Source: an uncultured Candidatus Saccharibacteria bacterium
GTDB taxonomy: Bacteria; Patescibacteriota; Minisyncoccia; Phycocordibacterales; G965230995
Reading direction: 5' to 3'
Length of the DNA stretch: 64,000 nucleotides
Assembly: GCA_965230995.1 (NCBI GenBank)
Contig: OZ246398.1
Location: 211,768 to 275,767 of the forward strand
Both the position numbers and the translations under genes were made by a program. The notes under the pieces are model-generated. The model did no database searches and had not been told where the DNA came from. It worked only from the letters and a program-made list of their open reading frames with translations. Of this stretch, positions 1-58,953 are shown in pieces (positions within the stretch are counted from its first letter, which is position 1; the number at the start of each line of letters is the position of its first letter).

Positions 1-113
1 AAAGCTTTGCTTCTTTTTTTCTTTGTATGTTTGTTCTTCATATAATATAGAGTATATACAATTGAAAGAACGAAGACAAAGCAAAAACGGGCGACGCCCG
101 TTTTTGCTTTTAA

Positions 114-287
114 TTACATATCATCCATATCATCAAAAGGATCTGCATCCAAGTCTTCTTCTTCCCCAAGCTCGTCTAGGGAAACAGTCTCGTCGTCACC
201 TTCCTCGAGAAGTTCTGCATCTACTGCACCCTCCTCGGTTTCTTCTTCATCATCGTGGCCAAATGCCTTTAATTCATCGTCACTCAT
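114..287 (-). CDS. Small, very acidic 58-aa ORF not in the supplied track (MSDDELKAFGHDDEEETEEGAVDAELLEEGDDETVSLDELGEEEDLDADPFDDMDDM). Function unknown.
   Basis: Hand-translated from the minus strand. ATG at 287-285, TAA at 116-114. Sits directly downstream of ruvC on the same strand. The opposite-strand track ORF 23..349 has a biased, implausible composition. Confidence 0.25.
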   Translation of the reverse strand: MSDDELKAFGHDDEEETEEGAVDAELLEEGDDETVSLDELGEEEDLDADPFDDMDDM

Positions 288-404
288 TGTTCTTTTTAAT
301 TTTTACAATGCTAATTGCGAGCTTGAAAATGTCGCTTTCATATTTGTAGCAAATTAATATTTTTTTGCAACCCCTAAAACAGGAGATACAGTTGGGGAAA
401 ACTT

Positions 405-881
405 TTAACCTCGATAATGAGCAAAAAAAGTGAGACCAACAGCAATCGCGTCATATTCGTCATCGTGTTTTATTATTTTGTCTATTTTAATTATCATTGG
501 CAACATTTTAATGATGTGCTCTTTGTCGCTTTTTCCATAACCCGTCGTTGCGACTTTTATCTGTGGCGGTGTGTATTCAAAAATAGGTAATCCGTTTTCT
601 GTTGCTCTAGCAAAAATAACACCTCTTGATTCGGCAACAAGCAGGGCTGTTTTTTGATTTGTATTAAAAAACAGAGATTCTATTGATAAACATTCGGGAG
701 AATATTTTTTTATAATCTCAGATATTCTTTTATCTATTTGGAGAAGTCTCTCTCCGTGCGTGTCTTTTGGTGATGTTTTAAAGCATTCCGAAAAAACGAG
801 ATTTTCTCTTTGACCTTTTTCTTTTTCAATTATTGCAATACCAAGTCTTTCATAACCAGGGTCTATTGAAATTATCCTCAT
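405..881 (-). CDS. ruvC: Crossover junction endodeoxyribonuclease RuvC (Holliday junction resolvase)
   Basis: N-terminus MRIISIDPGYERLGIAIIE is the classic RuvC start, with catalytic acidic residues. Length of 158 aa fits the family. Confidence 0.8.
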   Translation of the reverse strand: MRIISIDPGYERLGIAIIEKEKGQRENLVFSECFKTSPKDTHGERLLQIDKRISEIIKKYSPECLSIESLFFNTNQKTALLVAESRGVIFARATENGLPIFEYTPPQIKVATTGYGKSDKEHIIKMLPMIIKIDKIIKHDDEYDAIAVGLTFFAHYRG

Positions 882-939
882 TTATCTATTATATGTCATT
901 TCAATAAAAAATGTTTTATCTGATATAATAGATAAAAAT

Positions 940-3165
940 ATGAGTAATTTGCTAAAACAAATTAATTTTTGGAAATTTTGTCTGCTAGCGTTTAGTTTTT
1001 TTGTATTTTGTTTTGGTTTTTTTCTTGTGCCGACCATTACAAAAGCAGGACAAATTACCTTACCTCCAAACAACCTAGGTCTAGTAGGGTATTGGTCATT
1101 TGAAGATGCTACGGGCACTGTTGCAACTGATTTTTCTGGTAATGGTAATGTTGGAGCACTAACAAATGGACCGTTATGGTCAGCTGGTAAAGCTGGCAAG
1201 GCAATAGATCTAGATGGTACCGATGATTACGTGTCCTTAGGCAGTAATCTCTTAAATGGAGAAGCTGCTATAACAGTAGCAGCTTGGGTTAATATGAATG
1301 CCTTACCTGGACATGAGGGCACGTATTATATCCTGGCAGCAGATGATGGCAGTAGTAGTGGAAGTGAGTCGGTATTTTCAATGGGGGTGGCAACTTATAC
1401 ATCTATAAATTACATTTCTCAAAACTTTCTCGGGGTGAATGCCTTTTTTGGTGTCAGAACAACATCGGGACCAAACGGTGAAAGACCGATTGCTATATCA
1501 GACGCATCTTATGGCGGGGAGTATCTAAATGGTATGGCAATAGTTAATGATCCAGCTGGATTAGAGGCAAATAAATGGGTCCATATAATTGGGACATATG
1601 ATGGTTCAGAGACTAAAATTTATTTTAACGGTGTTCTTGCAGGTTCAAGCACAAATCAACCAGACGGGCAGAATAGGTCTATTACTGGTAATCTAAAATC
1701 TACTAATCAGGAAAGAAGAATCGGTGCGGGAAGTGGAGGTGGATATTATACAGACGGTACTGCAGACGAAGTCCGCATTTACAACCGAGCTCTTTCTGCA
1801 ACTGAAGTCTCTACTCTCTACAATCGCTCAAGCAAAATCCGCACAATACAATCATCACAAAGGAACCTAGTTCCTAATGGTCTAGTAGGCTACTGGTCTT
1901 TTGATGGTTCTGATATATCAGGAACATCAGCATATGACAGATCAGGTAACAACAACACTGGTACATTAACTAATGGCCCAACAGTTGCGATTGGAAAGAT
2001 GGGGCAAGCGATGAATTTTGATGGAAGTGATGATTATGTAGATTGCGGTTCTGGTGCTTCCTTAAATTTAAACACCTCTTTTACATACACAGCCTGGATT
2101 AAACCACAGAACGTTACGGGAGATAAAATGATCATTTCTAAAGGAACAACCGGACAATGGTATGTATATTTTTCTTTAAATGGTAATAAATTATACGTAG
2201 CAACTTATGATGATTCCACTGTTGCAACCCTTGATGGGTTAACAGTTCTTTCAGCGAGTGGATGGTCTCATGTGGTCGTTTCTTATGATGGTTCAAGTTT
2301 AAAACTTTATGTTAATGGTGTGCTGGACAACTCAACATCTTCGTTAATTAACCCATCGACTGGCGGAACTCAATTTACATATATTGGACGTCCAACATAT
2401 ACCAGTGGTTCATATTTTAATGGTTTGATTGACGACACCCGTATCTACAACCGCGCCCTCACCACATCAGAAATCAATCAGCTTTACAAAGCAGGTGAAG
2501 CCAAACTACAAGCCACACAAAACTCCAAATTAACAAACGGTCTTGTAGGTCTCTGGTCATTTGATGGTCCAGACATTTCTGGTACTACAGCGTATGACAG
2601 AAGCGGAAATGCCAACAATGGAACACTTACCAACGGCCCAACAGTTGCAATTGGAAAGATGGGTCAGGCAGTCAACCTCGACGGAAGCAATGACTATATA
2701 AACACATCAGCAACAGGACTAGATTTTAGCACCGGTGATTTCTCTATCAGCTTTTGGAATAAAACTAACGGATCAATAACAAGTATTGCTGAAGCATTAA
2801 GTACCCCAGACGAATCAATTCGTGTGTCATACAACAATGCATGCGTTTCAGATCAGCCTAAGGGGTTGGCAGTTGTGGCTGGTGGACAAATTGGATGTAC
2901 CTCAAACGCTATTGGAACATACACAGATGGAAATTGGCACCTTGGTACAATAGTCAGAACCTCTGGAACAGTTACCTTTTATCACGACGGGGTAAGCATT
3001 CTCTCATTTGCTTCATCTGGTAATGTAAATGCAAACAGCTTTCAACTGGGTAAATATGCTGGGGCAGCACTCAATCATTTTAATGGTTCTCTTGATGATA
3101 CTCGTATTTACAACCGCGCGCTTTCCACAGGTGAAATTCAGATGCTGTATAATATGGGGAGATAA
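940..3165 (+). CDS. Large secreted or membrane-anchored protein with about three LamG-like (concanavalin-like lectin) jellyroll repeats
   Basis: N-terminal hydrophobic segment. Repeated LVGYWSFDG..SGT.AYD.SGN.N.GTLTNGP blocks, each ending in a D(D/E)(T/V)RIYNRAL motif typical of LamG repeats. Paralog of 52843..55014 and 55017..57575. Confidence 0.75.
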   Translation: MSNLLKQINFWKFCLLAFSFFVFCFGFFLVPTITKAGQITLPPNNLGLVGYWSFEDATGTVATDFSGNGNVGALTNGPLWSAGKAGKAIDLDGTDDYVSLGSNLLNGEAAITVAAWVNMNALPGHEGTYYILAADDGSSSGSESVFSMGVATYTSINYISQNFLGVNAFFGVRTTSGPNGERPIAISDASYGGEYLNGMAIVNDPAGLEANKWVHIIGTYDGSETKIYFNGVLAGSSTNQPDGQNRSITGNLKSTNQERRIGAGSGGGYYTDGTADEVRIYNRALSATEVSTLYNRSSKIRTIQSSQRNLVPNGLVGYWSFDGSDISGTSAYDRSGNNNTGTLTNGPTVAIGKMGQAMNFDGSDDYVDCGSGASLNLNTSFTYTAWIKPQNVTGDKMIISKGTTGQWYVYFSLNGNKLYVATYDDSTVATLDGLTVLSASGWSHVVVSYDGSSLKLYVNGVLDNSTSSLINPSTGGTQFTYIGRPTYTSGSYFNGLIDDTRIYNRALTTSEINQLYKAGEAKLQATQNSKLTNGLVGLWSFDGPDISGTTAYDRSGNANNGTLTNGPTVAIGKMGQAVNLDGSNDYINTSATGLDFSTGDFSISFWNKTNGSITSIAEALSTPDESIRVSYNNACVSDQPKGLAVVAGGQIGCTSNAIGTYTDGNWHLGTIVRTSGTVTFYHDGVSILSFASSGNVNANSFQLGKYAGAALNHFNGSLDDTRIYNRALSTGEIQMLYNMGR

Positions 3166-3169
3166 ACAA

Positions 3170-3197
3170 AAGCCCCTTGCGGGGCTTTTGTTTTATT
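3170..3197. terminator. Bidirectional rho-independent terminator between the LamG gene (+) and yebC (-)
   Basis: aaaagcccc-ttgc-ggggctttt hairpin flanked by A and T runs. Approximate coordinates. Confidence 0.5.
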
Positions 3198-3726
3198 CAG
3201 CATTTGTGTAAACACCTTGGACATCATCATTTTCTTCGAGTTCGTCTATTAACGCGCCAAGTTTTTCACCGTCTTCTTCGGATATTTTGTTTGGTGTCTG
3301 AGCCGTCCACTCTCTGTTTTCATTTTTAGAAAAAGCCCAAGACGCCGCCCCTGCAGTTGCGAGACTACATCCATTTTTTGATAAAATATGTCGAACCTCT
3401 GCTGCTGTTTTGTTTCTGTTGTCTGTTAGAGCTTCTATTATGATTGCTGTTCCTCCCGGTCCGTAAGCTTCGTAGGTGACTTCTTCCATCTGTGCTCCGC
3501 CTGCTTCGGTAGCTTTTTTGATTGCTCTCTCGATGTTGTCGTTTGGCATATTTACTTCTTTTGCCTTTGCGATAGCCATTCGAAGACCAGGAGAATCAAC
3601 ATTTCCTTTTGCTTTCTTTGCTTCAACAGTAATCAAACGCACTGCTTTTCCAAAGAGTTTACTTTTTTGACCATCAGTTGCTTCTTTCTGTCTCTTTATC
3701 TTTGACCATTTGTTATGACCGGACAT
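3193..3726 (-). CDS. yebC: YebC/PmpR family probable transcriptional regulator (short form)
   Basis: MSGHNKWSKIKRQKEATDGQKSKLFGK matches the conserved YebC N-terminus. Classic position between ruvC and ruvB. Confidence 0.8.
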   Translation of the reverse strand: MSGHNKWSKIKRQKEATDGQKSKLFGKAVRLITVEAKKAKGNVDSPGLRMAIAKAKEVNMPNDNIERAIKKATEAGGAQMEEVTYEAYGPGGTAIIIEALTDNRNKTAAEVRHILSKNGCSLATAGAASWAFSKNENREWTAQTPNKISEEDGEKLGALIDELEENDDVQGVYTNAE

Positions 3727-5378: not shown

Positions 5379-7097
5379 CTAGTAGTCTGTTTCTAGATCT
5401 ACAACACGTCCAACTTCGTCGAAAGAAGTTTCTCCTCTTAATATTTTTAGGATAGCATCTTGTTTCATATTGAGAATATTTTGTGGTTTTGCTGCGTTCC
5501 AAATTTCTCTTTCACTTGGATAATTCATAACAGTATCTTCGATTGCTTTGTCGCTTAGGATTGCCTCATAGACACCAGTTCTGCCTTTGTAACCTGTGTT
5601 ATTACATTTATCGCAACCGGATGCGATAAAATGTTTTTCTGTTTGAATTCCTTCGAGATAACTTTTGTCGCCGATTGTTCCCAGTATTCTGTCTATAATG
5701 GTTCTTTCGTTTCCTGTAACGGGAACTTCTTTTTTACATTCGCTACATAATTTTCTAACGAGTCTTTGTGCCATACTCACGGTGAGGGCCGATGTGAGGA
5801 CTTTTGGACTGATTCCAAGATCAATTAATCTAGGGTATGTTCCAGCTGCATTGTTTGTGTGCAATGTAGAAAATACTATGTGTCCTGTGAGTGCCGAGTT
5901 TATAGCAATAGAAGCAGTTTCATTGTCTCGAATTTCACCGACCATAATTACGTCGGGGTCTTGTCTCAATGCTGCTTTAAGTCCAGAGGCAAAAGTGTAA
6001 TTCTTGTTTTCGTCAGTCTGTGTCTGGACGATACCTTTCATATGATATTCGATCGGGTTTTCAATCGTAATGATTTTTATTTCCGGATCATATTTTTTCT
6101 TTAGAAAGGCGTATAGGGAAGTGGTTTTTCCAGAACCTGTCGGACCAGTGGTGAGAATCATTCCGTTTGGTTTGTTCATTTCACGGATCAAAATATCAAG
6201 CAATTTTTTGTGTATGCCAAGTTTTTCGAGATCAACAGAAATAGAAGCTGGGTCGAGTACTCTCATTACAACAGAGTCATCATATGTGCTGGGTACGATA
6301 GATGTTCTGATTTCAATTTCTACTTCTCCGATTTTTATAGAAAAACGACCGTCTTGCGCACCTTGGATATTTACTTTCATCCCAGATATGAGCTTTATTC
6401 TTGAAAGTACCAGAGAATATGTTCGCAGATCAAACATCGACATATCTGTGAGTACTCCATCTAGTCTATATCTAAGTCGGACTTGTGTTTCGGTAGGTTC
6501 CAAATGTATATCTGAAGCTTTGAGAGAAAGAGCACCTGCGAGGATGACTTCCATTATCTTTGTGAGGCGATTGCTTTCGGTCGAAGAAACTAATTTTGCT
6601 ATTAGGTTAGTTACATTTACTATTGATTTTATTTCTTCACGGAGCCTGTTTATATTTTCTTCTGAAATAATGATAGAACCAGCAGTCGATGTGGTTGCGT
6701 GTGACAATTCTTCGTATCTGTCCCAGACTCTCTTTAGGCTCTGTTCAGAAACCATATACATTTCGACAACAAAACCTTTTCTTGTCATTTCTTCTTCGAG
6801 CATTTTTACTTCGTCGTTTTGTGGGGCGAGTGCGCCGACAGAAACTCTCTTTCCAACAATATTAAAAGGAGCAACTCTTATTTTTCTCGCTGTTTCTTCG
6901 TCTATTGCCCTCAGAGCGTCTATATTAATAGGAAAGAAAGATAGGTTTACATATGGAATACCAGATTTCTCTGATAAAGCTTTTGCGAGATCCTCGCCCT
7001 CGCGAGATCTTATTTTTGCAAGATCATCATCACGCTTTTTTTCATCGTCAAAATTTGTCATATTACATACATAATATACTTTATTTTTTCTACTCAC
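5379..7097 (-). CDS. pilB: Type IV pilus assembly / type II secretion ATPase (PilB/GspE family)
   Basis: GspE N-terminal domain, Walker A GPTGSGKTT, a VGEIRD box, and a C-terminal tetracysteine CSEC...CDKC zinc motif. Confidence 0.8.
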   Translation of the reverse strand: MSRKNKVYYVCNMTNFDDEKKRDDDLAKIRSREGEDLAKALSEKSGIPYVNLSFFPINIDALRAIDEETARKIRVAPFNIVGKRVSVGALAPQNDEVKMLEEEMTRKGFVVEMYMVSEQSLKRVWDRYEELSHATTSTAGSIIISEENINRLREEIKSIVNVTNLIAKLVSSTESNRLTKIMEVILAGALSLKASDIHLEPTETQVRLRYRLDGVLTDMSMFDLRTYSLVLSRIKLISGMKVNIQGAQDGRFSIKIGEVEIEIRTSIVPSTYDDSVVMRVLDPASISVDLEKLGIHKKLLDILIREMNKPNGMILTTGPTGSGKTTSLYAFLKKKYDPEIKIITIENPIEYHMKGIVQTQTDENKNYTFASGLKAALRQDPDVIMVGEIRDNETASIAINSALTGHIVFSTLHTNNAAGTYPRLIDLGISPKVLTSALTVSMAQRLVRKLCSECKKEVPVTGNERTIIDRILGTIGDKSYLEGIQTEKHFIASGCDKCNNTGYKGRTGVYEAILSDKAIEDTVMNYPSEREIWNAAKPQNILNMKQDAILKILRGETSFDEVGRVVDLETDY

Positions 7098-32118: not shown

Positions 32119-34248
32119 ATGGGTCTTCCACGCGAACGGCATGTGGATGGGCTGAGAGCGGTCGCCGTAATAGACGTCATTCTCGCTCATCTGAAGCTCC
32201 TTCTCGGAGCTTTCATCGGTGTCGATGTGTTTTTTGTCATCTCAGGGTATGTCATCACCAAAATTGGGAGACATACCATTGGGAAGAAAGACGAGCACGG
32301 CAGGGATATGTTTACAATTCCTGGTTTCTACAACCGGCGTGTAAAGAGAATCCTTCCTGCTGCGTTGGTGTGTCTAGCTGTAACCGTAATCGCTGGGTAC
32401 TTCTTCATCGGGCCAAGCGATTACAAAGAGACAGGAGAAGGAGCACTTGCGGCTACCTTGATGGCTGGAAACATCCATGAGGGACAGCTACCGATTGGGT
32501 ACTTTGACCACGACTTTCAGGCGAGACCAGTCAACCACTTTTGGAGTCTGGGTGGGGAAGAACAGTTTTACCTGATCTTTCCAATGGCCCTTATGCTCCT
32601 CTTGAGGTTTTGTCCAAAGAAAGCACCTGTGGTCCTTGTACTGATTGGACTGGGTCTTCTGTGCTGGAGCGGGTACTCGGTACTTGCATTCAAGGTGTGG
32701 AGGTTCTATTGCCCTGCAAACAGGGCATGGGAACTGATTGCTGGTGCGTTGCTAGCTTTCCCGCCGATTGGTGTCAAAACCAAGATGGGGGGAAAGATAG
32801 TGATTGTTTTGGTGGGGGTGTCTCTCGTTCTGACTGTCGGCGGAGTCCTGCAGGGTATGTTCCTGTTCGTAATTTCCGCCGTGCTTATGCTCGGGACTGG
32901 TGCTTTAGTCTTGTATCGTCCGGAGAATCCGACACGGTGGCAAGGCGAGGTACTTAGCCTGATTGGTATGGCACTCATCGTGACCGGTTGTGTCGTCTTC
33001 GATCGAGAAACTCTGTTTCCAGGCTTTCTGGCTCTCGTGCCAGTACTGGGAGCAATGCTCGTAATTGTGGGCGCTTCAAACAAGGAGGTACTCCTGAATC
33101 GCCTGCTATTGGCTAAACCAGTATTGTACATCGGGGCAATATCGTTCTCGGTCTACCTCTGGCACTGGCCGATAATCGTCTACACCGACTTCTACTCGCC
33201 GATACCTCTCGGTCTGTGGCACAAGTTGGTGTTGATAGCGGTCACTCTTGCGGTCGCTAGTGTGAGCTACCACTTCATAGAGAAACCGTTCCAGGAAAGC
33301 AAGGCAAAGAAAGAGTCTGTGTTCTTCGCAGGCCTTATTGCTGTGCTAACTGTGTACGCCGTAGCTCTTTTGGTGGTAGACAAGAACGGTTGGCCGGAAA
33401 GATTCGGGAAGCTGGCAACGCCAGTTGTGCTGAATACTTCCGGTATCGAAATCAACGACAGCCTCGGCAAAGACGGGACATGGCTGAAACAAAAAGGCCT
33501 GCCTGTCATCGGGGACGTCAAAACAACCCCAACATTCCTTCTTGCTGGAGATTCACACGTCAACGCGTTTGTGGAGATCTTCGACAAGTTGGGAAAGGAG
33601 AAAGAAGTTTCCGGATTTGTGTCGTTTAGGTCGGGCAGTTTACCGGTTCCCGGTATATGGACCACCCGAGAGAACGACACGCCGGAAAGCTTTATGGGCT
33701 ACAACCGAGCACTCGAGCAATTCGTGCACGAGAGAAATCTCAAGCATGTATTTCTCGTTGGCAGGTGGAGCAATGCCGTAGTTGGCGATATGCTCGTATC
33801 CGAAGACCCAACGAGGAAAGAGGTAGAAAAAGAGCTGTCTGCAAGGACGCTCGAAAAAAACCTCTTTGCTCTGGTTGCGAGGCTCAAGGCTTCGGGTGTG
33901 GATGTTGTGATCGTACAACAGCTACCAGAACACCCGTTCCACGCCTACAAGAAACTGGTAGCGAGAAGGGGTCGCTTGAAAGGTGTGAGCCGAGAAGCCT
34001 ACCTTTCAAAGCAGGGGACAACGATTGATATGATCCTTCGCTCCGGCGCAAGGACTGTCGATCTATCCTCGCTCCTCTTTGAGGGGGACTGTGTGAGACT
34101 CATTGATCCCAAAGGCTATCCGATATGGTGGGACTATGACCACATCGGTGGTAGAGAGATCACGAGAATTGCTGGTCCTACGTTCGAGACGTTCTTTAAA
34201 GAAATCGCAAACCAAAAAGGAGACTTTGCGATGAACAAAAGGGAGTGA
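32119..34248 (+). CDS. Acyltransferase family 3 membrane protein fused to a C-terminal SGNH hydrolase domain (OatA/OafA-like O-acetyltransferase). GC-rich, apparently horizontally acquired.
   Basis: N-terminal DGLRAVAV...GVDVFFVISGYVIT acyltransferase-3 signature and about 10 TM helices. C-terminal domain of about 250 aa. Many overlapping alternative-frame ORFs are typical of GC-rich DNA. Confidence 0.7.
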   Translation: MGLPRERHVDGLRAVAVIDVILAHLKLLLGAFIGVDVFFVISGYVITKIGRHTIGKKDEHGRDMFTIPGFYNRRVKRILPAALVCLAVTVIAGYFFIGPSDYKETGEGALAATLMAGNIHEGQLPIGYFDHDFQARPVNHFWSLGGEEQFYLIFPMALMLLLRFCPKKAPVVLVLIGLGLLCWSGYSVLAFKVWRFYCPANRAWELIAGALLAFPPIGVKTKMGGKIVIVLVGVSLVLTVGGVLQGMFLFVISAVLMLGTGALVLYRPENPTRWQGEVLSLIGMALIVTGCVVFDRETLFPGFLALVPVLGAMLVIVGASNKEVLLNRLLLAKPVLYIGAISFSVYLWHWPIIVYTDFYSPIPLGLWHKLVLIAVTLAVASVSYHFIEKPFQESKAKKESVFFAGLIAVLTVYAVALLVVDKNGWPERFGKLATPVVLNTSGIEINDSLGKDGTWLKQKGLPVIGDVKTTPTFLLAGDSHVNAFVEIFDKLGKEKEVSGFVSFRSGSLPVPGIWTTRENDTPESFMGYNRALEQFVHERNLKHVFLVGRWSNAVVGDMLVSEDPTRKEVEKELSARTLEKNLFALVARLKASGVDVVIVQQLPEHPFHAYKKLVARRGRLKGVSREAYLSKQGTTIDMILRSGARTVDLSSLLFEGDCVRLIDPKGYPIWWDYDHIGGREITRIAGPTFETFFKEIANQKGDFAMNKRE

Positions 34249-51935: not shown

Positions 51936-52733
51936 ATGAATACACCATTTGAAGAAATGCAGGGAAGAAGTTCATTAAAAACAACAGCAATCGTCGTGCT
52001 TGCTGTATTAGGAATATTCCTTGTTGCACAAACCGTTGGAACTATACTTACATATAAGAATATAGACAACGGACAGTATCCATCAAAAACTATGACCTTT
52101 TCAGGAAAATCTGAAGTCATGGCAGTTCCAGATGTCGCCACATTTACTTTTTCAGTAACAAAAGAAGCTAAGACTGTAGATGAAGCACAAAAAATGGTTC
52201 AGGATATTATTTCAAAAGCAAAAGAAGCACTTGATAAATCAGGAATAGAGAATAAAGACATAAAAACAGTCAGCTATAATGTAAATCCAAGATATGAATA
52301 TACTGGTGGCACAGCCTATGTTGCACCAAAGAGAAATTTTGTTGGATATGAGGTGACCCAAACAACACAGGTTAAAGTTCGAGACGCAAGCAAGAGTGGA
52401 GAGGTTCTAGGAAAAATGGGTTCAGTTGGAGCCACAGACATAAGTAGCATAATGTTTGATATAGATGATAAAGAAGCATTGCAAAAGCAAGCAAGAGAAG
52501 AAGCGATAGCAGAAGCAAAAGCAAAAGCCGAATCTCTTTCAAAGGAATTAGGTATAAAATTGGTTGGAATTATAAGTTTCTATGAAGACAACAATAATTA
52601 CCCACAACCATACTACGCTTACGATTCAGCTATGGTAAAGGGAATGGGAAGTGCAGAGGCGGTAGCGCCAACACTTTCTCCAGGAGAAAACAAAATAATA
52701 TCTAATGTAAATATCACTTACGAGATAAAATAA
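51936..52733 (+). CDS. SIMPL-domain (DUF541, BP26/YggE-like) protein
   Basis: N-terminal TM. Pattern typical of the SIMPL family. Moderate certainty. Confidence 0.5.
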   Translation: MNTPFEEMQGRSSLKTTAIVVLAVLGIFLVAQTVGTILTYKNIDNGQYPSKTMTFSGKSEVMAVPDVATFTFSVTKEAKTVDEAQKMVQDIISKAKEALDKSGIENKDIKTVSYNVNPRYEYTGGTAYVAPKRNFVGYEVTQTTQVKVRDASKSGEVLGKMGSVGATDISSIMFDIDDKEALQKQAREEAIAEAKAKAESLSKELGIKLVGIISFYEDNNNYPQPYYAYDSAMVKGMGSAEAVAPTLSPGENKIISNVNITYEIK

Positions 52734-52842: not shown

Positions 52843-55014
52843 ATGCACGAAGAAAGAATTTTAAAAAACAAAATAAAATCCTTCGTTTTTCCGATGGAAT
52901 TTTTTGCTGTTTTTATTTTATTTTTTCTTACATTTCCGTATTTTGCTTCTGCTGGTCAAGTTACACTACCTCCAAACAATCTCGGTCTAGTGGGGTATTG
53001 GTCCTTTGAGGACGCTACGGGTACTGTCGCAACAGATTTTTCTGGTAATGGCAATGCAGGAACACTCACAAACGGCCCTACATGGACAACAGGTAAAATC
53101 GGCAAGGCAGTGAGTTTTGACGGATCAAATGATTTTGTTGAAATAGCAAATGCCTCTAGTCTTAATAATTCAAATGGAACTATTAGTACATGGGTCTATG
53201 TCACTGAAACAGTCCTAGTCAACGCAGGACAAATAGTTTCTATATCAAATGGGGCATCGACACAAAACTATATTCAATTTTACTATTATAATAACAAGGT
53301 ATACTTTTCCCTTGCTGATAATTCTACAACCTTGTTTGGGTTTAATACCCCAATCAGTTACAGTCAATGGTTTAATGTTACAGTTGTTGGCGGGTCAAGT
53401 GGAAATGCAGTCTACATAAATGGTGTGGCAGTATCTCCAACTTATTACGTTGGTGATAATACTGTTACTGCGTGGCTGGATGACTTAACTAGTATTACTA
53501 ATGCAAGGATCGGTGCTACTAGGTACAACAATACAGACGATAATTTTTTTAAAGGATATATCGATGACGTCCGCATCTACTCCCGCGCACTCTCTGCCAC
53601 CGAAATCTCAAACCTCTACAATCGTTCAAGCAAAAACCGCACAATACAATCATCACAAAAGAATCTAGTTCCAAATGGTCTAGTAGGCTACTGGTCTTTT
53701 GATGGTTCTGATATATCAGGAACATCAGCATATGACAGATCAGGTAACAACAATACTGGTACACTAACTAATGGCCCAACAGTTGCGATTGGAAAGGTAG
53801 GTCAGGCATTGGTTTTAAGCGGTAATGTTGCTGTAGTAGATTTTTCTTTTAAAAATAGTCACAATATACCAATCGCGTATTCTTTTTGGGTAAAAAACAC
53901 ACTTGCTGAAACAAAATATTTATTTGCAGACATATCACAAACTGAGGGCATACAGTCCTATATTGATGCTAGTGGTAAATTTAATTTTCAGATTTGTTCT
54001 TCCGGATCTTGCTATACATTAACCTCAAATACAGCAGTTAATAATGGCAACTGGAGACATGTTGTGGTTGCCTGGGACGGAACAACAAATGTTAATACTG
54101 TTCAAATATACGTAGATGGTATTCTTGATGCACAAGGGACATCAACTAAAACAACAACCACGCCAGATTGTGGTTTTGTAATAGGTGGGTATAGGCCAAG
54201 TAATGCATGTGGTGCCGTAGAAACATTAAATACTTATGTTGGTTCAATTGATGAATTTAGAATCTACAACCGCGCACTCACCACATCAGAAATCAATCAG
54301 CTCTACAAAGCAGGTGAAGCCAAACTTCAAGCAACACAAAACTCTAAACTAACAAACGGTCTGGTAGGTCTCTGGTCCTTTGATGGTCCAGATATTTCTG
54401 GAACTACAGCGTATGACAGAAGCGGTAACGGTAACAACGGAACGCTCACCAACGGCCCAACAGTTGCAATTGGAAAAGTAGGGCAAGCACTGCAGTTTGA
54501 TGGAACGAATGATATCGTCGCCATTTCAGATAGCGCCTCTCTGGAACCTGGTGCAAGTGATTGGACAATTTCACTTTGGTCATATGTTAATGATATTAGT
54601 AGATACAACCAAGTAATGGGCAAATGGACAGCAACAGGAGAAGACCAGAGAACTTACGCTTTTGTATATGACACAGGAAGTAACGGCAAAATGTATCTCG
54701 TAACATCAAATAATGGCACTAGTGCCAAGGTGACATACAGTGATGGTGGGGCAATAGTACAACAAACTTGGCAACACGTTGTTGTGGTTAAATCTGGTAC
54801 AGAAGTCACATTTTACGTTAATGGAGTAGCTGTTGGAGACGATGGAACTGCAGTTGATTCAACAATGTACAGTTCAACATCAGGAACGTACCTTGGAAAT
54901 TATGAAGTCACCTCAAATGCATATAACTTTGGTGGGAAGCTCGACGACGTCCGTATTTACAACCGCGCGCTTTCCACAAGTGAAATACAAATGCTGTATA
55001 ATATGGGGAGATAA
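52843..55014 (+). CDS. LamG-like repeat surface protein, paralog 2
   Basis: Same N-terminal module (AGQVTLPPNNLGLVGYWSFEDATGTVATDFSGNGN) and C-terminal module (DDVRIYNRALSTSEIQMLYNMGR) as 940..3165, with different middle domains. Confidence 0.75.
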   Translation: MHEERILKNKIKSFVFPMEFFAVFILFFLTFPYFASAGQVTLPPNNLGLVGYWSFEDATGTVATDFSGNGNAGTLTNGPTWTTGKIGKAVSFDGSNDFVEIANASSLNNSNGTISTWVYVTETVLVNAGQIVSISNGASTQNYIQFYYYNNKVYFSLADNSTTLFGFNTPISYSQWFNVTVVGGSSGNAVYINGVAVSPTYYVGDNTVTAWLDDLTSITNARIGATRYNNTDDNFFKGYIDDVRIYSRALSATEISNLYNRSSKNRTIQSSQKNLVPNGLVGYWSFDGSDISGTSAYDRSGNNNTGTLTNGPTVAIGKVGQALVLSGNVAVVDFSFKNSHNIPIAYSFWVKNTLAETKYLFADISQTEGIQSYIDASGKFNFQICSSGSCYTLTSNTAVNNGNWRHVVVAWDGTTNVNTVQIYVDGILDAQGTSTKTTTTPDCGFVIGGYRPSNACGAVETLNTYVGSIDEFRIYNRALTTSEINQLYKAGEAKLQATQNSKLTNGLVGLWSFDGPDISGTTAYDRSGNGNNGTLTNGPTVAIGKVGQALQFDGTNDIVAISDSASLEPGASDWTISLWSYVNDISRYNQVMGKWTATGEDQRTYAFVYDTGSNGKMYLVTSNNGTSAKVTYSDGGAIVQQTWQHVVVVKSGTEVTFYVNGVAVGDDGTAVDSTMYSSTSGTYLGNYEVTSNAYNFGGKLDDVRIYNRALSTSEIQMLYNMGR

Positions 55015-55016
55015 AA

Positions 55017-57575
55017 ATGTTGAATCATAACAATAAACAAAATATTAAAATAAAGAATCTCGCACAATTCGCGAAGCGAATTGTGCCGGTTATATATTTC
55101 TGTTTAATTTTTCTATTTGCCATTACACTTCTACCTTCAATTACAAAAGCTGGACAAATTACTTTACCTCCAAACAATCTCGGTCTAGTGGGGTACTGGT
55201 CTTTTGAAGACGCCACAGGCACCAAGGCAACCGATTTTTCTGGTAATGGTAATACAGGCACACTTACAAATGGTCCAGCATGGATTGCTGGTAAAGTCGG
55301 CAAGGCGGTGAGTTTTGATGGAAGCAATGATTATGTAACTGTGCCAAACAGTTCTTCACTTGCTTTGGGAACAGGTGATTTTAATGTTTCTATGTGGTTA
55401 AAGACAACAACATCTGCAAGTTCATTTTTGTTGAATAAATATATTAACGGTGAGGGTCAATTTGCTATTCTAATAAACTTTGCCGGTTATGGAGGGTCTG
55501 GTGGAAAAGTTACTTTTTATACATATAAATCTGGATCAGAAGTTTATAGGCCATCATCGATAGCGGTTAACGACGGGTTGTGGCATCACTTGTCTTTTGT
55601 AAGAACCGGCACAACATTAAATATATATATTGATGGTGTTTTAAGTAATGGCACACAAACCGGAAGTACTGCTTTGGATGTTACGTCCACTGGCGCCTTA
55701 GGTATTGGTTATAATGGATATGATTCCCCTGACGATAGTGGGTATACAAATGGAACTCTAGATGACATTCGTATCTACTCACGCGCTCTCTCTACCACCG
55801 AAATCTCAAATCTCTACAATCGTTCAAACAAAATCACAAAAGTAAAATCCGGTGTACCAAACAGTCGTCTTGTTGGATATTGGTCTTTTGAAGATGGATC
55901 GGGCTCACAAGCAAGAGACTATTCTGGTAATGGTAATACAGGAACTCTGACTAATATGGACACTAGTGCAGACTGGGTAAGCGGAGCGGTGGGTACAGCA
56001 CTTGATTTTGACGGAACAAACGATTATGTAACGGTGCCAGATAGTAATAGTTTAGATTTTGGTACTTCTGATTTTTCTATTGCCTTTTGGCACAAATCAA
56101 GTGGAACAGGGGAAAGACCCATCTTTGTTAAAGTTGGCGATTGGGACACTGATCAGTCACCAGATAATGATAAAGGATTTATCATTGAACAGAATGGTAC
56201 CAATAAGCTTTTTGCCGGCCTCATTTCTAATAACTGGGGAAAGTACTTATATTCAGTTACAAGTTCCACAATCAACGATAATACATGGAGACATTTTGTC
56301 GTTAAATTTAATAGGTCAGCAAACACCATTGATATATTTATAAATGGTGTTGAGTCTGGATATACTACAGACAGTAGTGCTGTCGGTGGTTATAGCTCGG
56401 CAGATACAGTTACAAATACATATCCAATGCAAATAGGTGTCTTTATTCTGGCAGACTTTGATTATCACCAGGGCCAGCTTGATGATATACGAATCTATGA
56501 TCGTGCATTGACTACTTCAGAAATTACCAGTCTATATACAAACCCAACCTATTCAAACAAGGTAACCAAAGTAAATTCTTCGCAAAACAATAAACTCACA
56601 AATGGCCTTGTAGGTCTATGGTCTTTTGATGGCAAGGATATGTCAATCACAGCGGGAGGCGGGGTAGACTATGTTGTGTCTGGTGCAGACAATACTAATT
56701 ACAATGGCGATTACACAAACAATGGACAAACACAAGGCGGTCAACCTGTTTATGAAAAAAGCGGCGGTGGATATTATCTATTATTTGATAGTCAGATGAT
56801 GTTCTGGGCGTTGCAGGATTCAATTACTGAGAATCATCCATGTTCGGCATATATTCAATGGCAAGATGTGAATGATCCGATTGGTGCCGCTTGGGAAGGA
56901 TTTTGCGAAATGGGTACACCGACTGTAACTGCTGGTGGTGGAGGTGGCGCCGCCTCAACCATTGTATATGACCGTTCTGGTAACAATAATACTGGAACAC
57001 TTACAAATGGTCCGCAACCCGTTGCAGGTAAAATAGGTCAAGGGCTTTCTTTTGATGGAACAGACGACTATGTCACAGTTCCGAATAGCAACACTTTTGA
57101 TTTTGGCACAGGCCCATTTACTTTCTCTGCTTGGGCAAAAACTACAAGTACGGCATATAGCATGTTATTTCTAAGATATAATTCAAGTGGGGGTGGTGGT
57201 CAGATATTCATGTCATTTTCAAGAGGGGGTGGTGCCGATACTGGAAAGGTTGAATTATATACATGGAATTCTACACAGGAAGAAGTATATAGAAAATCTT
57301 CAGGTACCATAAATGATGGACAGTGGCATCATGTGGTGGGTGTAAGGGACGGTGGAACAATCACAATTTATGTTGATGGAGCAGTAAACCAGGGTACTCA
57401 AACTGGTAGTGCCACCATCAATGCAAGCTCTGATGGAACATTTGGTATTGGGTATAACAGTAACGAAGGGGGCGCACCAGGAGGCTATTTTGATGGCTCT
57501 CTTGATGATGTCCGTGTTTACAACCGCGCTCTTTCTATTTCAGAAATCAAACAGCTATATAACATGGGAAGGTGA
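55017..57575 (+). CDS. LamG-like repeat surface protein, paralog 3
   Basis: Starts 2 nt after paralog 2. Same N- and C-terminal modules. Glycine-rich middle. Confidence 0.75.
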   Translation: MLNHNNKQNIKIKNLAQFAKRIVPVIYFCLIFLFAITLLPSITKAGQITLPPNNLGLVGYWSFEDATGTKATDFSGNGNTGTLTNGPAWIAGKVGKAVSFDGSNDYVTVPNSSSLALGTGDFNVSMWLKTTTSASSFLLNKYINGEGQFAILINFAGYGGSGGKVTFYTYKSGSEVYRPSSIAVNDGLWHHLSFVRTGTTLNIYIDGVLSNGTQTGSTALDVTSTGALGIGYNGYDSPDDSGYTNGTLDDIRIYSRALSTTEISNLYNRSNKITKVKSGVPNSRLVGYWSFEDGSGSQARDYSGNGNTGTLTNMDTSADWVSGAVGTALDFDGTNDYVTVPDSNSLDFGTSDFSIAFWHKSSGTGERPIFVKVGDWDTDQSPDNDKGFIIEQNGTNKLFAGLISNNWGKYLYSVTSSTINDNTWRHFVVKFNRSANTIDIFINGVESGYTTDSSAVGGYSSADTVTNTYPMQIGVFILADFDYHQGQLDDIRIYDRALTTSEITSLYTNPTYSNKVTKVNSSQNNKLTNGLVGLWSFDGKDMSITAGGGVDYVVSGADNTNYNGDYTNNGQTQGGQPVYEKSGGGYYLLFDSQMMFWALQDSITENHPCSAYIQWQDVNDPIGAAWEGFCEMGTPTVTAGGGGGAASTIVYDRSGNNNTGTLTNGPQPVAGKIGQGLSFDGTDDYVTVPNSNTFDFGTGPFTFSAWAKTTSTAYSMLFLRYNSSGGGGQIFMSFSRGGGADTGKVELYTWNSTQEEVYRKSSGTINDGQWHHVVGVRDGGTITIYVDGAVNQGTQTGSATINASSDGTFGIGYNSNEGGAPGGYFDGSLDDVRVYNRALSISEIKQLYNMGR

Positions 57576-57649
57576 ACCGGATAATTTTGCAACATTTTAT
57601 ACCCCTTGACGTCTGGTTTTGTCGGGTGTATTATATATGTAATAGATTA

Positions 57650-57672
57650 ACGCCAGCGGGGCGTTTTTTAAT
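57650..57672 (+). terminator. Hairpin plus T-run between the LamG gene and secE. A TTGACG-17-TATTAT promoter-like element lies just upstream at about 57606..57634.
   Basis: aacgcc-agcgg-ggcgtttttt. The promoter-then-hairpin order suggests either an attenuator in the secE leader or a LamG terminator with a coincidental promoter match. Confidence 0.35.
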
Positions 57673-57680
57673 ACAAAAAT

Positions 57681-57857
57681 ATGAAAATAATTGATTATAT
57701 AAAGGACACAAAAGCAGAGCTTAGACACGTAAGCTGGCCATCAAGAAAGCAGGCTATGGGTTTTACTGTTGTAACGGTAATCATATCAATAGCAGTTGCA
57801 GTCTATCTTGGAATCTTTGATTATATCTTTACACAGATACTTAGAATTACTCTTTAA
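57681..57857 (+). CDS. secE: Preprotein translocase subunit SecE, 58 aa (not in the supplied ORF track)
   Basis: Hand-translated: MKIIDYIKDTKAELRHVSWPSRKQAMGFTVVTVIISIAVAVYLGIFDYIFTQILRITL. Single TM. Canonical position before nusG. Confidence 0.7.
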   Translation: MKIIDYIKDTKAELRHVSWPSRKQAMGFTVVTVIISIAVAVYLGIFDYIFTQILRITL

Positions 57858-57882
57858 TTAGTTCTTTAATCTTCTTTAATTT

Positions 57883-58428
57883 ATGTCAAAACAAAAAATA
57901 CAAGAAGGGAGAAATTGGTATGTGATCCACACATACGCAGGATACGAAAACGCTGTGATGAACAATCTAAAGCAACGTATCGAATCTCTCGGTATGCAGG
58001 ACAAAATTTTTAATGTACTTGTTCCTACTGAAAAGAAAATCAAAGTAAAAGCAGGAAAGAGGGTAGAAGAATTAGAAAAAATATACCCAGGATATATTCT
58101 TGTTGATATGGTGGTTACTGACGATTCTTGGTATGTCGTGAGAAACACACCGAGAGTCACAGGTTTCGTCGGTTCTGGTGTTACCCCGGTTCCCCTAGGT
58201 AAAAAAGAAGCAGACGAACTATTTGCTCGAATGAATGCAGAGACTCCAACCCATAATATTGACCTTGCAATCGAAGACATAGTAAAGATCGCAGACGGTC
58301 CTTTCAAAGATCTAGAGGGTAGGGTAAGCGAAATTGACCAAAGCAGAGGAAAGGTTAAAGTCTTGGTTTCTATGTTTGGTAGAGAAACACCGGTTGAACT
58401 AGATTTCTTGCAAATAAAGAAGATTTAG
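57883..58428 (+). CDS. nusG: Transcription termination/antitermination factor NusG
   Basis: NGN domain start (WYVIHTYAGYENAV) and a C-terminal KOW. Confidence 0.85.
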   Translation: MSKQKIQEGRNWYVIHTYAGYENAVMNNLKQRIESLGMQDKIFNVLVPTEKKIKVKAGKRVEELEKIYPGYILVDMVVTDDSWYVVRNTPRVTGFVGSGVTPVPLGKKEADELFARMNAETPTHNIDLAIEDIVKIADGPFKDLEGRVSEIDQSRGKVKVLVSMFGRETPVELDFLQIKKI

Positions 58429-58494
58429 GAATTAAAGGGGCAGAGCTAGACTTTTTTCGGAAAATACATATTATAAGCACTACAAAATAAATTT

Positions 58495-58917
58495 ATGGCA
58501 AAGAAAATATTAAAAAAGCTAAAATTACAGATTCCAGCAGGAAAAGCCAATCCAGCTCCACCAGTTGGACCTGCTTTGGGACAAGCCGGTATTAACATCG
58601 GAGATTTCGTTCAAAAATTCAATGCAGCTACTGCAAAAATGATGGGCGATATCGTTCCTGTTGAAATATCAGTTTACGAAGACAGAACATATACTTTTGT
58701 TCTTAAGACACCACCAGCAGCAAATCTTATTATGAAAGCAGCTGGTATTGAAAAAGGATCTAGCAAGAATGCACTATCTAGAGCAGGAAAGATAACAAAA
58801 GCTCAGGTAAGAGAAATTGCAGAGAAAAAACTTCCAGACCTAAACGCTCACGACATCGAAGCTGCTTCAAAAATAATCGAAGGAACAGCAAGATCAATGG
58901 GGGTAGAAGTTAAATAA
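58495..58917 (+). CDS. rplK: 50S ribosomal protein L11
   Basis: [35 protein letters not shown]. Confidence 0.9.
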
Positions 58918-58928
58918 TACAAAAACAC

Positions 58929-58953
58929 AAAAACCGCCTAGGCGGTTTTTGTG
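58929..58953 (+). terminator. Rho-independent terminator after rplK. No rplA follows.
   Basis: aaaaccgcc-tag-gcggttttt. Confidence 0.55.

Follow-up and report, generated by a model that had tools for sequence, protein, structure and literature searches.

Conserved domain junctions and probable short-tract gene conversion among predicted LamG surface proteins of an uncultured bacterium

Introduction

How do genes whose domains share no detectable DNA similarity come to be nearly identical in short stretches between those domains? The question is raised by three genes in a 64,000-nucleotide (nt) stretch of contig OZ246398.1 (assembly GCA_965230995.1, positions 211,768 to 275,767 of the forward strand), referred to here as the window. 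All three lie on the + strand and encode a predicted signal/anchor sequence followed by three Laminin_G_3 (LamG, PF13385) domains: P1 (940..3165; 741 amino acids (aa), signal/anchor at aa 1-36, TKA/GQ), P2 (52843..55014; 723 aa) and P3 (55017..57575; 852 aa). P2 and P3 stand in tandem with a spacer of 2 nt, the boundary reading TAA-AA-ATG. These open reading frames (ORFs) and the tandem arrangement are exactly as given in the original prediction, which had been made from the letters of the window. That prediction went further, and took the blocks of similar DNA at the ends of the genes and between their domains for recombination handles flanking variable cassettes, as in gene-conversion-based surface-variation systems.

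Multi-LamG proteins are very abundant in the Patescibacteria, or Candidate Phyla Radiation (CPR), and a role in attachment is generally presumed for them. Ectopic gene conversion is known to drive concerted evolution among bacterial paralogs, including tufA/tufB, Helicobacter babA/babB and other outer-membrane paralogs, and Neisseria opa, and gene conversion drives antigenic variation in the Neisseria pilE/pilS, Borrelia vlsE, Anaplasma msp2 and Mycoplasma genitalium MgPa systems. The answer that we favor for the window genes, with a probability of about 0.7, has two layers: purifying selection on the LamG termini and linkers, and sporadic short-tract gene conversion between paralogs that is confined to those same stretches.

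Results

Each gene was compared with the whole window by blastn. The N-terminal block (AGQITLPPNNLGLVGYWSFEDATGT...; P1 1036..1232, P2 52942-53138 and P3 55140-55336, + strand) gives alignments of 160-197 bp among the three genes and is 79-82% identical at the nucleotide level in every pair, which falls short of the very similar 5′ ends that had been ascribed to all three. Junction 1 of P1 (1765..2009, +) reaches from the final strand and helix of LamG1 across the linker into the first strands of LamG2, and is 89.8% identical over 245 bp to its counterpart in P2 (53563..53807, +). Its center, P1 1834-1998 against P2 53632-53796, reaches 96.4% over 165 bp with 6 differences and includes a perfect run of 80 bp (1876-1955 = 53674-53753). 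Junction 2 (P1 2443..2693, +; the end of LamG2, the linker and the start of LamG3) is 87.6% identical over 251 bp to P2 54262..54512 (+), and the C-terminal block (...STGEIQMLYNMGR*; P1 3103..3165 and P2 54952..55014, both +) 95.2% identical over 63 bp. P1 and P2 share exact runs of 80, 32, 29, 27 and 26 bp, lengths sufficient for homologous pairing to start there. Shared N-terminal, internal and C-terminal blocks thus exist as predicted, at identities lower than those first given. The figure of about 95% for the internal P1-P2 blocks applies to the 165-bp center of junction 1, while the full spans in true register (1830-2020 versus 53628-53818, and 2440-2680 versus 54259-54499) are 91.6% and 87.6% identical; the coordinates originally paired were 8-9 nt out of register and at their own offsets give 29%. 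The shared 3′ end holds for P1 and P2 but not for P3, which is only ~75% identical there.

The blocks have a recognizable protein identity. Each runs from the terminal part of a LamG domain (G.lDdvRIYNRALS..Ei..LY) through a short linker into the opening part of the domain that follows (LVGYWSFDG....D.SGNGN.GTLTNGP....GK.GqAl.FDG). In the AlphaFold2 model of P2, a block covers the last long strand of domain n together with its C-terminal helix, then a linker modeled with low confidence, and finally the opening four or five strands of domain n+1. When 233 domains from 108 homologs were aligned, the first ~48 and last ~24 positions were conserved, with the commonest residue at 50-90%, and the ~130 positions between them were not; a consensus of 21 three-domain proteins from different genomes showed the same position-specific junction peptides, and paralog pairs in four other genomes had the same periodic identity profile. 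Judged from these alignments, conserved ends around a variable middle are the normal profile of the Laminin_G_3 family, and what had been called recombination handles are the family-wide conserved termini of this domain together with a short linker. Because of purifying selection on the termini and the codon bias of the genome, any two copies are ~75-80% identical in DNA, and protein constraint and codon bias explain most of the block similarity first noticed.

They do not explain all of it. As a null model for silent sites, codons were drawn at random from the codon usage of the window at residues that are identical in two copies, which gives an expected nucleotide identity of 0.75-0.79. For P1 and P2, the identity at such codons is 0.969 in the center of junction 1 (z=7.6), 0.912 in junction 2 (z=6.4) and 0.965 in the last 21 codons (z=4.1). 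Comparisons of P3 with P1 or P2 at junction 2, the junction 1 center and the C-terminus fit the null (z ~0 to 1.8), and most DNA similarity involving P3 therefore needs no special explanation. The exceptions are a patch at the end of domain 1 and the N-terminal blocks, which modestly exceed the null in all three pairs (z 3-4; proportion of synonymous differences, pS, ~0.5).

The excess is also local. Between P1 and P2, codons are shared more often than expected in the junction blocks (z=9.8) and not at conserved residues of the cores (z=-1.3), and 7 paralog pairs, drawn from 4 genomes, show the same contrast between junctions (z 3.4-10.5) and cores (z -1.3 to 1.5). A recent duplication followed by fast evolution of the cores is ruled out, since conserved core residues share codons at the null level only. 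Site-specific codon preference is likewise ruled out, both by the P3 comparisons and by between-genome controls, in which the window genes set against six genes of three other genomes gave z of -3.2 to +1.1. Another genome (L082) carries three tandem LamG genes whose junctions are 70-83% identical by blastn. The codon-level test nevertheless detects a silent-site excess in the B-C pair of that genome.

A three-way scan of informative sites in P1, P2 and P3 located breakpoints within the blocks. In P2, a breakpoint lies at ~53625-53630: on its left, P2 agrees with P3 at 16 sites and with P1 at 5, and on its right with P1 at 58 sites and with P3 at 8 (Fisher p=7e-8). Accordingly, P2 53563-53635 is P3-like (89% identical to 55761-55833) and P2 53632-53796 is P1-like (96%). 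By these affinities, junction 1 of P2 is a chimera of two donors, and neither of the flanking cores resembles the cores of a donor. A second breakpoint was found in the C-terminal part of P2, at 54951-54955 (p=7e-4). The fraction of identical codons differs between the N-terminal block (27/45) and the center of junction 1 (49/54; p=6e-4), and the blocks were therefore homogenized at different times and not in one duplication. The genes are mosaic, as predicted, in the sense that DNA has been exchanged at the blocks; the surface-variation layout built upon this is not borne out. Taken together, the silent-site excess, the sharp breakpoints, the different ages and the chimeric junction argue for repeated short-tract gene conversion between paralogs.

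Positional orthologs provide a further comparison. P1 lies between ruvC (405-881, -; 58 bp from P1) and yebC (3193-3726, -). On a related contig, L092 (RuvC 65% identical), ruvB-yebC-ruvC is contiguous and without a LamG gene, while two others, L091 (RuvC 72%, YebC 71% and RuvB 76% identical) and L090 (RuvC 71%), carry a 713-aa three-domain LamG gene in the position and orientation of P1. O91 and O90, as these orthologs are called here, share 34-36% identity with P1 and 37% with one another; their cores match those of P1 at the family background of 20-30% at every position, and the N-segments of their domains keep a positional identity of 65-78% between O90 and O91. Within the window genome the relationships are reversed: the domain-2 N-segment is 90% identical (aa) between P1 and P2 and 56-58% between P1 and O90 or O91, and the N1 segments of the four paralogs of this genome (the fourth is described below) are 76-87% alike and 50-63% identical to the N1 segments of O90 and O91. 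The N1 type of the window genome is found at domain 2 in both orthologs. That converted segments are more alike among paralogs than among orthologs is the classical signature of concerted evolution by gene conversion.

The LamG domains between the blocks, originally described as unrelated in sequence, all belong to PF13385. The cores of P1, P2 and P3 are 22-34% identical in aa (24-25% for P1 and P2), and no DNA similarity between cores was detected by blastn. Across all four paralogs, the closest core pairs are domains 1 and 2 of the fourth paralog, P4 (53%), domains 1 and 3 of P3 (47%), and domain 2 of P2 with domain 3 of P4 (41%). The P2 LamG2 core (139 aa; 53824..54240, +), for which the P4 domain is the best relative, has best matches of 24-46% and no close copy among 1.84 billion representative proteins, and no core relative above ~37% over the full length was found among the top 120 family members. 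Further silent cassettes, which the original prediction had suggested seeking, were found neither as LamG-like DNA (blastn) nor as silent or truncated cassettes in six-frame protein anywhere else in the 64-kb window.

Variation between samples was sought in Logan data, which are consensus contigs. Two contigs from two runs (L088 and L089) are 100% identical to window 1-1905 and 1-1852, and thus to the 5′ 900-970 bp of P1; a third (L093), which is on record for six samples, agrees at 100% with 55166-58953 and so runs unbroken through nearly all of P3. Among these consensus contigs (P3 in six runs, the 5′ part of P1 in two), variation of the kind that the original prediction had suggested looking for was not seen. 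The first contig ends at window 1905, 30 nt into the 80-bp P1/P2 run, and the third starts at window 55166, inside a 31-bp P2/P3 run; Logan contigs, built with k=31, stop exactly k-1 bases into shared runs. The repeats are thereby confirmed as real, and the absence of full-length P1 and P2 from short-read assemblies is accounted for. A metagenome scan with the degenerate junction peptide FDGxDI[ST]GT[ST]AYDR[ST]GN returned three distant contigs (~70-76% nt identity, at most 86% over 80 bp) and no close strain variant. The next-closest RuvC is 76% identical.

P2 and P3 (52843..57575, +) lie between a SIMPL gene (51936-52733) and secE-nusG-rplK (57681...). In a NusG-based scan, SIMPL was directly upstream of secE/nusG in 69 of 80 related genomes, and none of the 80 SIMPL/nusG loci (1.3 Mb) contained a LamG gene; hence P2 and P3 have no orthologs there, and this comparison marks the pair as a lineage-specific insertion. 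Flanking repeats, a tRNA gene and a recombinase were sought around P2-P3 and not found, and carriage by a mobile element was rejected on that ground. Since P2-P3 is such an insertion and P1 interrupts a ruvB-yebC-ruvC block that is contiguous elsewhere, the LamG genes appear from their distribution to be accessory, gained at particular spots in conserved housekeeping blocks, with cores that turn over completely. Neither a reverse transcriptase nor a recombinase was present among the 18 neighboring or large window ORFs scanned. Mutagenesis by a diversity-generating retroelement was rejected, as the window holds no template repeat or second core copy and those 18 ORFs no reverse transcriptase. 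RuvB and RuvC are both encoded in the window.

Family membership of the three proteins is unambiguous in Pfam, where P1, P2 and P3 score 254.9, 219.4 and 257.9 bits against PF13385 (cut-off 27.6), with three stretches in each. The P2 model contains three beta-sandwiches (mean pLDDT, the predicted local distance difference test, 71.5) and matches the laminin LG1-3 and neurexin LNS arrays in Foldseek with E of 1e-15 to 1e-17; other nearest solved folds are the lectin-like domains of trans-sialidases and clostridial neurotoxins. A hydrophobic helix spans aa 3-30 of the model, and an A-x-A-like site (TKA/GQ, ASA/GQ) was read from the sequence. P1, P2 and P3 each read as full-length genes with a start codon and a predicted signal sequence. 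The fourth paralog, P0112 (P4), encodes 855 aa with the same three-LamG architecture elsewhere on the same 742,714-bp contig, and was compared at the protein level; neither P2 nor P0112 has an exact match in the contig index. More than 2700 homologs are found at E<1e-10, in versions of 3, 4 and 5 domains, annotated as LamG domain-containing proteins in Moranbacteria, Pacebacteria and others. The GC content of the host is ~37%, and the nearest relatives of its NusG, RuvC and LamG proteins are in metagenome-assembled genomes of Paceibacteria, Taylorbacteria, Zambryskibacteria and Moranbacteria, which places the host, on sequence affinity, in the Patescibacteria (Paceibacteria-type). All four proteins are predicted to be secreted or surface-exposed, with a putative secretion signal in their sequence, and would plausibly act as adhesins. 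LamG/concanavalin proteins are among the CPR cell-surface features proposed for host attachment (PMC11310336).

P3 and P0112 share a further feature, an insertion of ~104-115 aa placed right after the first strand (LVGLWSFDGKD) of the third LamG domain. In P3 it comprises 104 aa in the first loop of LamG3 (56646..56957, +; aa 544-647), and in P0112 aa ~545-660. The two insertions are homologous (30% identity, E=4e-7), and Pfam has no match for either, even at a threshold of E<10. To judge from this insertion and from their junction peptides, P3 and P4 may be another pair that undergoes conversion. At its 3′ end (LYNMGR*; 54973-55016), P2 spells TATAAT and GGGGAG in its last codons, a few bases before the ATG of P3, and a promoter or ribosome-binding site of P3 may be embedded there; P1 has the same DNA at its own 3′ end (3124-3165), after which there is no + strand gene. 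Antisense ORFs of ~100 aa with similar translations, at 882-1199 (-) and 55025-55327 (-), mirror the N-terminal blocks of P1 and P3 and are most likely spurious by-products of the conserved sense sequence. A terminator-like hairpin lies downstream of P3 (57649..57665, +).

The neighborhoods of LamG genes yielded several other observations. At the P1 site, L091 has an extra Trp-repressor/helix-turn-helix gene (5451-5894) between the LamG gene and ruvC, which is absent in the window and in L090. A T2SSE (PilB-like) ATPase gene lies two genes from the P1 site in the window (5379-7097, -) and in L091 and L092, and in another genome a five-domain LamG gene is directly upstream of a type IV pilus cluster encoding PilC/T2SSF, an N_methyl pilin, PilM and PilN (L081 10001-21354); LamG proteins may be linked with pilus genes. 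In two unrelated genomes, standalone GIY-YIG nuclease-like genes (89-98 aa; L086 6775-7071 and L087 388-657) adjoin multi-LamG genes, and none was seen beside the LamG genes of the window. This proximity may be fortuitous, or such nucleases might introduce the double-strand breaks from which gene conversion begins. LamG genes in L082 (13552-14226), L086 (7491-8105) and L087 (8048-8702) are flanked by a Y1 transposase, AbiEii and a nucleotidyltransferase/HepT toxin-antitoxin pair, and such mobile or defense neighbors fit a location of LamG genes in variable genome regions. Within the window, a gene for an AT3 + SGNH acyltransferase (32119-34248) occupies a 2-kb segment with a GC content of 0.50, against 0.33-0.43 in the rest, and may have been acquired horizontally.

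Discussion

Understanding the mosaic structure of these genes requires that what is conserved by selection be separated from what is shared by exchange. In the model that we favor, a scaffold consisting of the last long strand, the C-terminal helix, the linker and the first four or five strands is kept family-wide, around a hypervariable middle of ~130 residues. Short-tract, non-reciprocal homologous recombination (ectopic gene conversion) would repeatedly copy these conserved stretches between paralogs of the same genome. Between P1 and P2, events are proposed at junction 1 (the most recent), at junction 2 (older) and in the last 63 bp; between P2 and P3, at the end of domain 1; and more ancient events would have involved all N-terminal blocks. 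Conversion would be confined to the blocks because only there is identity sufficient for pairing, while the cores, too diverged to pair, would each stay unique. We infer that gene conversion of the RecA type is the mechanism, and that it acts here as a passive by-product and not as a selected device.

Several points weigh against this model. The comparison involves two or three sequences and no close outgroup, and the reverse history, a young duplicate pair whose cores were replaced, is not formally separable from it. That the cores of positional orthologs have turned over completely (20-30% identity) is as compatible with cassette replacement as with rapid divergence. Among the other genomes, two between-genome pairs likewise have a same-codon excess (z=5.1), so that unsaturated common ancestry could account for part of the excess elsewhere. 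Finally, the adhesin function and the secretion signal are assigned from sequence and from general statements in the literature (PMC11310336).

An alternative that we consider unlikely is cassette exchange, in which the junctions would serve as homology arms for swapping whole LamG cores between paralogs, or in from other strains, and so change specificity; the near-identical P1-P2 junctions would then be remnants or by-products of swaps. Breakpoints do lie inside the junctions, and core similarity ignores position, the best pairs joining P2 domain 2 with P4 domain 3 (41%), P3 domain 1 with domain 3 (47%) and P4 domain 1 with domain 2 (53%). The N-segment types are not bound to position either, as seen from the window N1 type at domain 2 of O90 and O91; at the P1 position, the cores of the orthologs are wholly different, between flanking genes that are 71-76% identical; and the lineage-specific P2-P3 insertion indicates that LamG genes are acquired and lost. 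However, no pair of cores has a recent ancestry, the cores have no DNA similarity, and their silent sites are at the null. The best matches of the P2 domain-2 core elsewhere are at 24-46% among 1.84 billion proteins, and no variation was seen among sequencing runs. The blocks differ in age, and the two-donor junction 1 of P2 comes without similarity in the cores, so that short-patch conversion would be needed in any case. A speculative extension, to which we give a similarly low probability, is that position-specific LamG junctions act in episymbiotic Patescibacteria as built-in homology arms for replacing whole cores with those of paralogs or of strain DNA taken up from outside. Attachment specificity could then turn over at a fixed locus, as a comparison of P1 with its orthologs might suggest, while conversion keeps the arms matched.

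Plain paralogy, in which purifying selection would act on linkers and domain termini and no DNA would be exchanged, would account for the family-wide conservation profile and for the fit of P3 to the codon-usage null against P1 and P2 at junction 2, the junction 1 center and the C-terminus. It is very improbable and already refuted by the silent-site tests, as P1-P2 silent sites lie far above the null (z up to 7.6) and include a perfect run of 80 bp, the breakpoints are sharp and phylogenetically incongruent, and site-specific codon preference is excluded.

We think even less of programmed antigenic or phase variation of the pilE/pilS, vlsE or msp2 type, in which one expressed gene is diversified at high frequency from silent donor cassettes, despite conserved blocks that flank variable segments, presumed surface proteins and two genes in tandem. 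As far as the window goes, it is already largely refuted. All copies are complete ORFs with predicted signal sequences, no silent or truncated cassette exists in the 64 kb, and the cores, at 22-34% aa identity, are not variants of one another. Six runs yield P3 as a single unvarying contig, two runs agree fully over the 5′ part of P1, and no recombinase, reverse transcriptase or other dedicated element was found beside the genes. Exchange has hit the conserved blocks and not the cassettes, whose silent sites are at the null, and this is the reverse of what the surface-variation system of the original prediction would do. That prediction had itself named extra cassettes and population-level variation at the junctions as what distinguishes such a system from paralogy; with neither seen, the variation-system reading fails by its own measure, within limited data. 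Mis-joining of paralogs by the assembler, which could in principle have made near-identical or chimeric junctions and would be in keeping with the breakage of k=31 short-read assemblies at these repeats, is the least credible explanation, since the tracts, with 6 differences in 165 bp, are similar and not identical, both loci keep their flanking synteny on either side, and independent Logan contigs match the window at 100% up to the repeats.

If the favored model is correct, the locus is a clean but ordinary case of segmental concerted evolution in a surface-protein family, and its value is mainly practical. A pattern of conserved termini and a variable center calls for a silent-site null model before it is taken for a cassette system, and these junction repeats fragment short-read assemblies of CPR genomes. 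The gain of LamG genes at fixed housekeeping spots, together with full turnover of their cores, bears on how host-dependent bacteria change attachment specificity. Should the homology-arm hypothesis prove true instead, it would amount to a modular way of diversifying adhesins within a large and uncultivated section of the bacterial tree.

The proteins themselves are members of the multi-LamG (PF13385) family of the Patescibacteria/CPR, with a predicted signal/anchor followed by tandem LamG domains, and nothing essential sets them apart; compared with other members, their cores lack close relatives (37% or less), and P3 and P4 add the insertion of 104-115 aa. Their closest solved folds, the eukaryotic LG/LNS arrays of laminin alpha (LG1-5) and neurexin (LNS1-6), are also tandem, but differ in sequence (9-16% identity) and in linkers, and the bacterial proteins have no EGF spacers and carry a predicted bacterial secretion signal. 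The likeness to gene-conversion antigenic variation extends to conserved blocks flanking variable segments, presumed surface proteins and evidence of non-reciprocal recombination. Unlike those systems, the window has no layout of expression site and silent cassettes, the variable segments are not alleles, the conserved parts are exchanged and not the variable ones, and the consensus contigs reveal no population heterogeneity. With paralogs that undergo ectopic conversion, the window genes share tracts of silent identity, sharp breakpoints, a greater similarity among paralogs than among orthologs, and a limitation to homologous segments. The difference, as judged from sequence, is one of extent, since here short inter-domain junctions (60-250 bp) in otherwise unalignable genes are affected and not most of the gene. 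Cassette switching is thus not supported by these comparisons, and the window genes are best described as a known protein family in which conserved segments evolve in concert.

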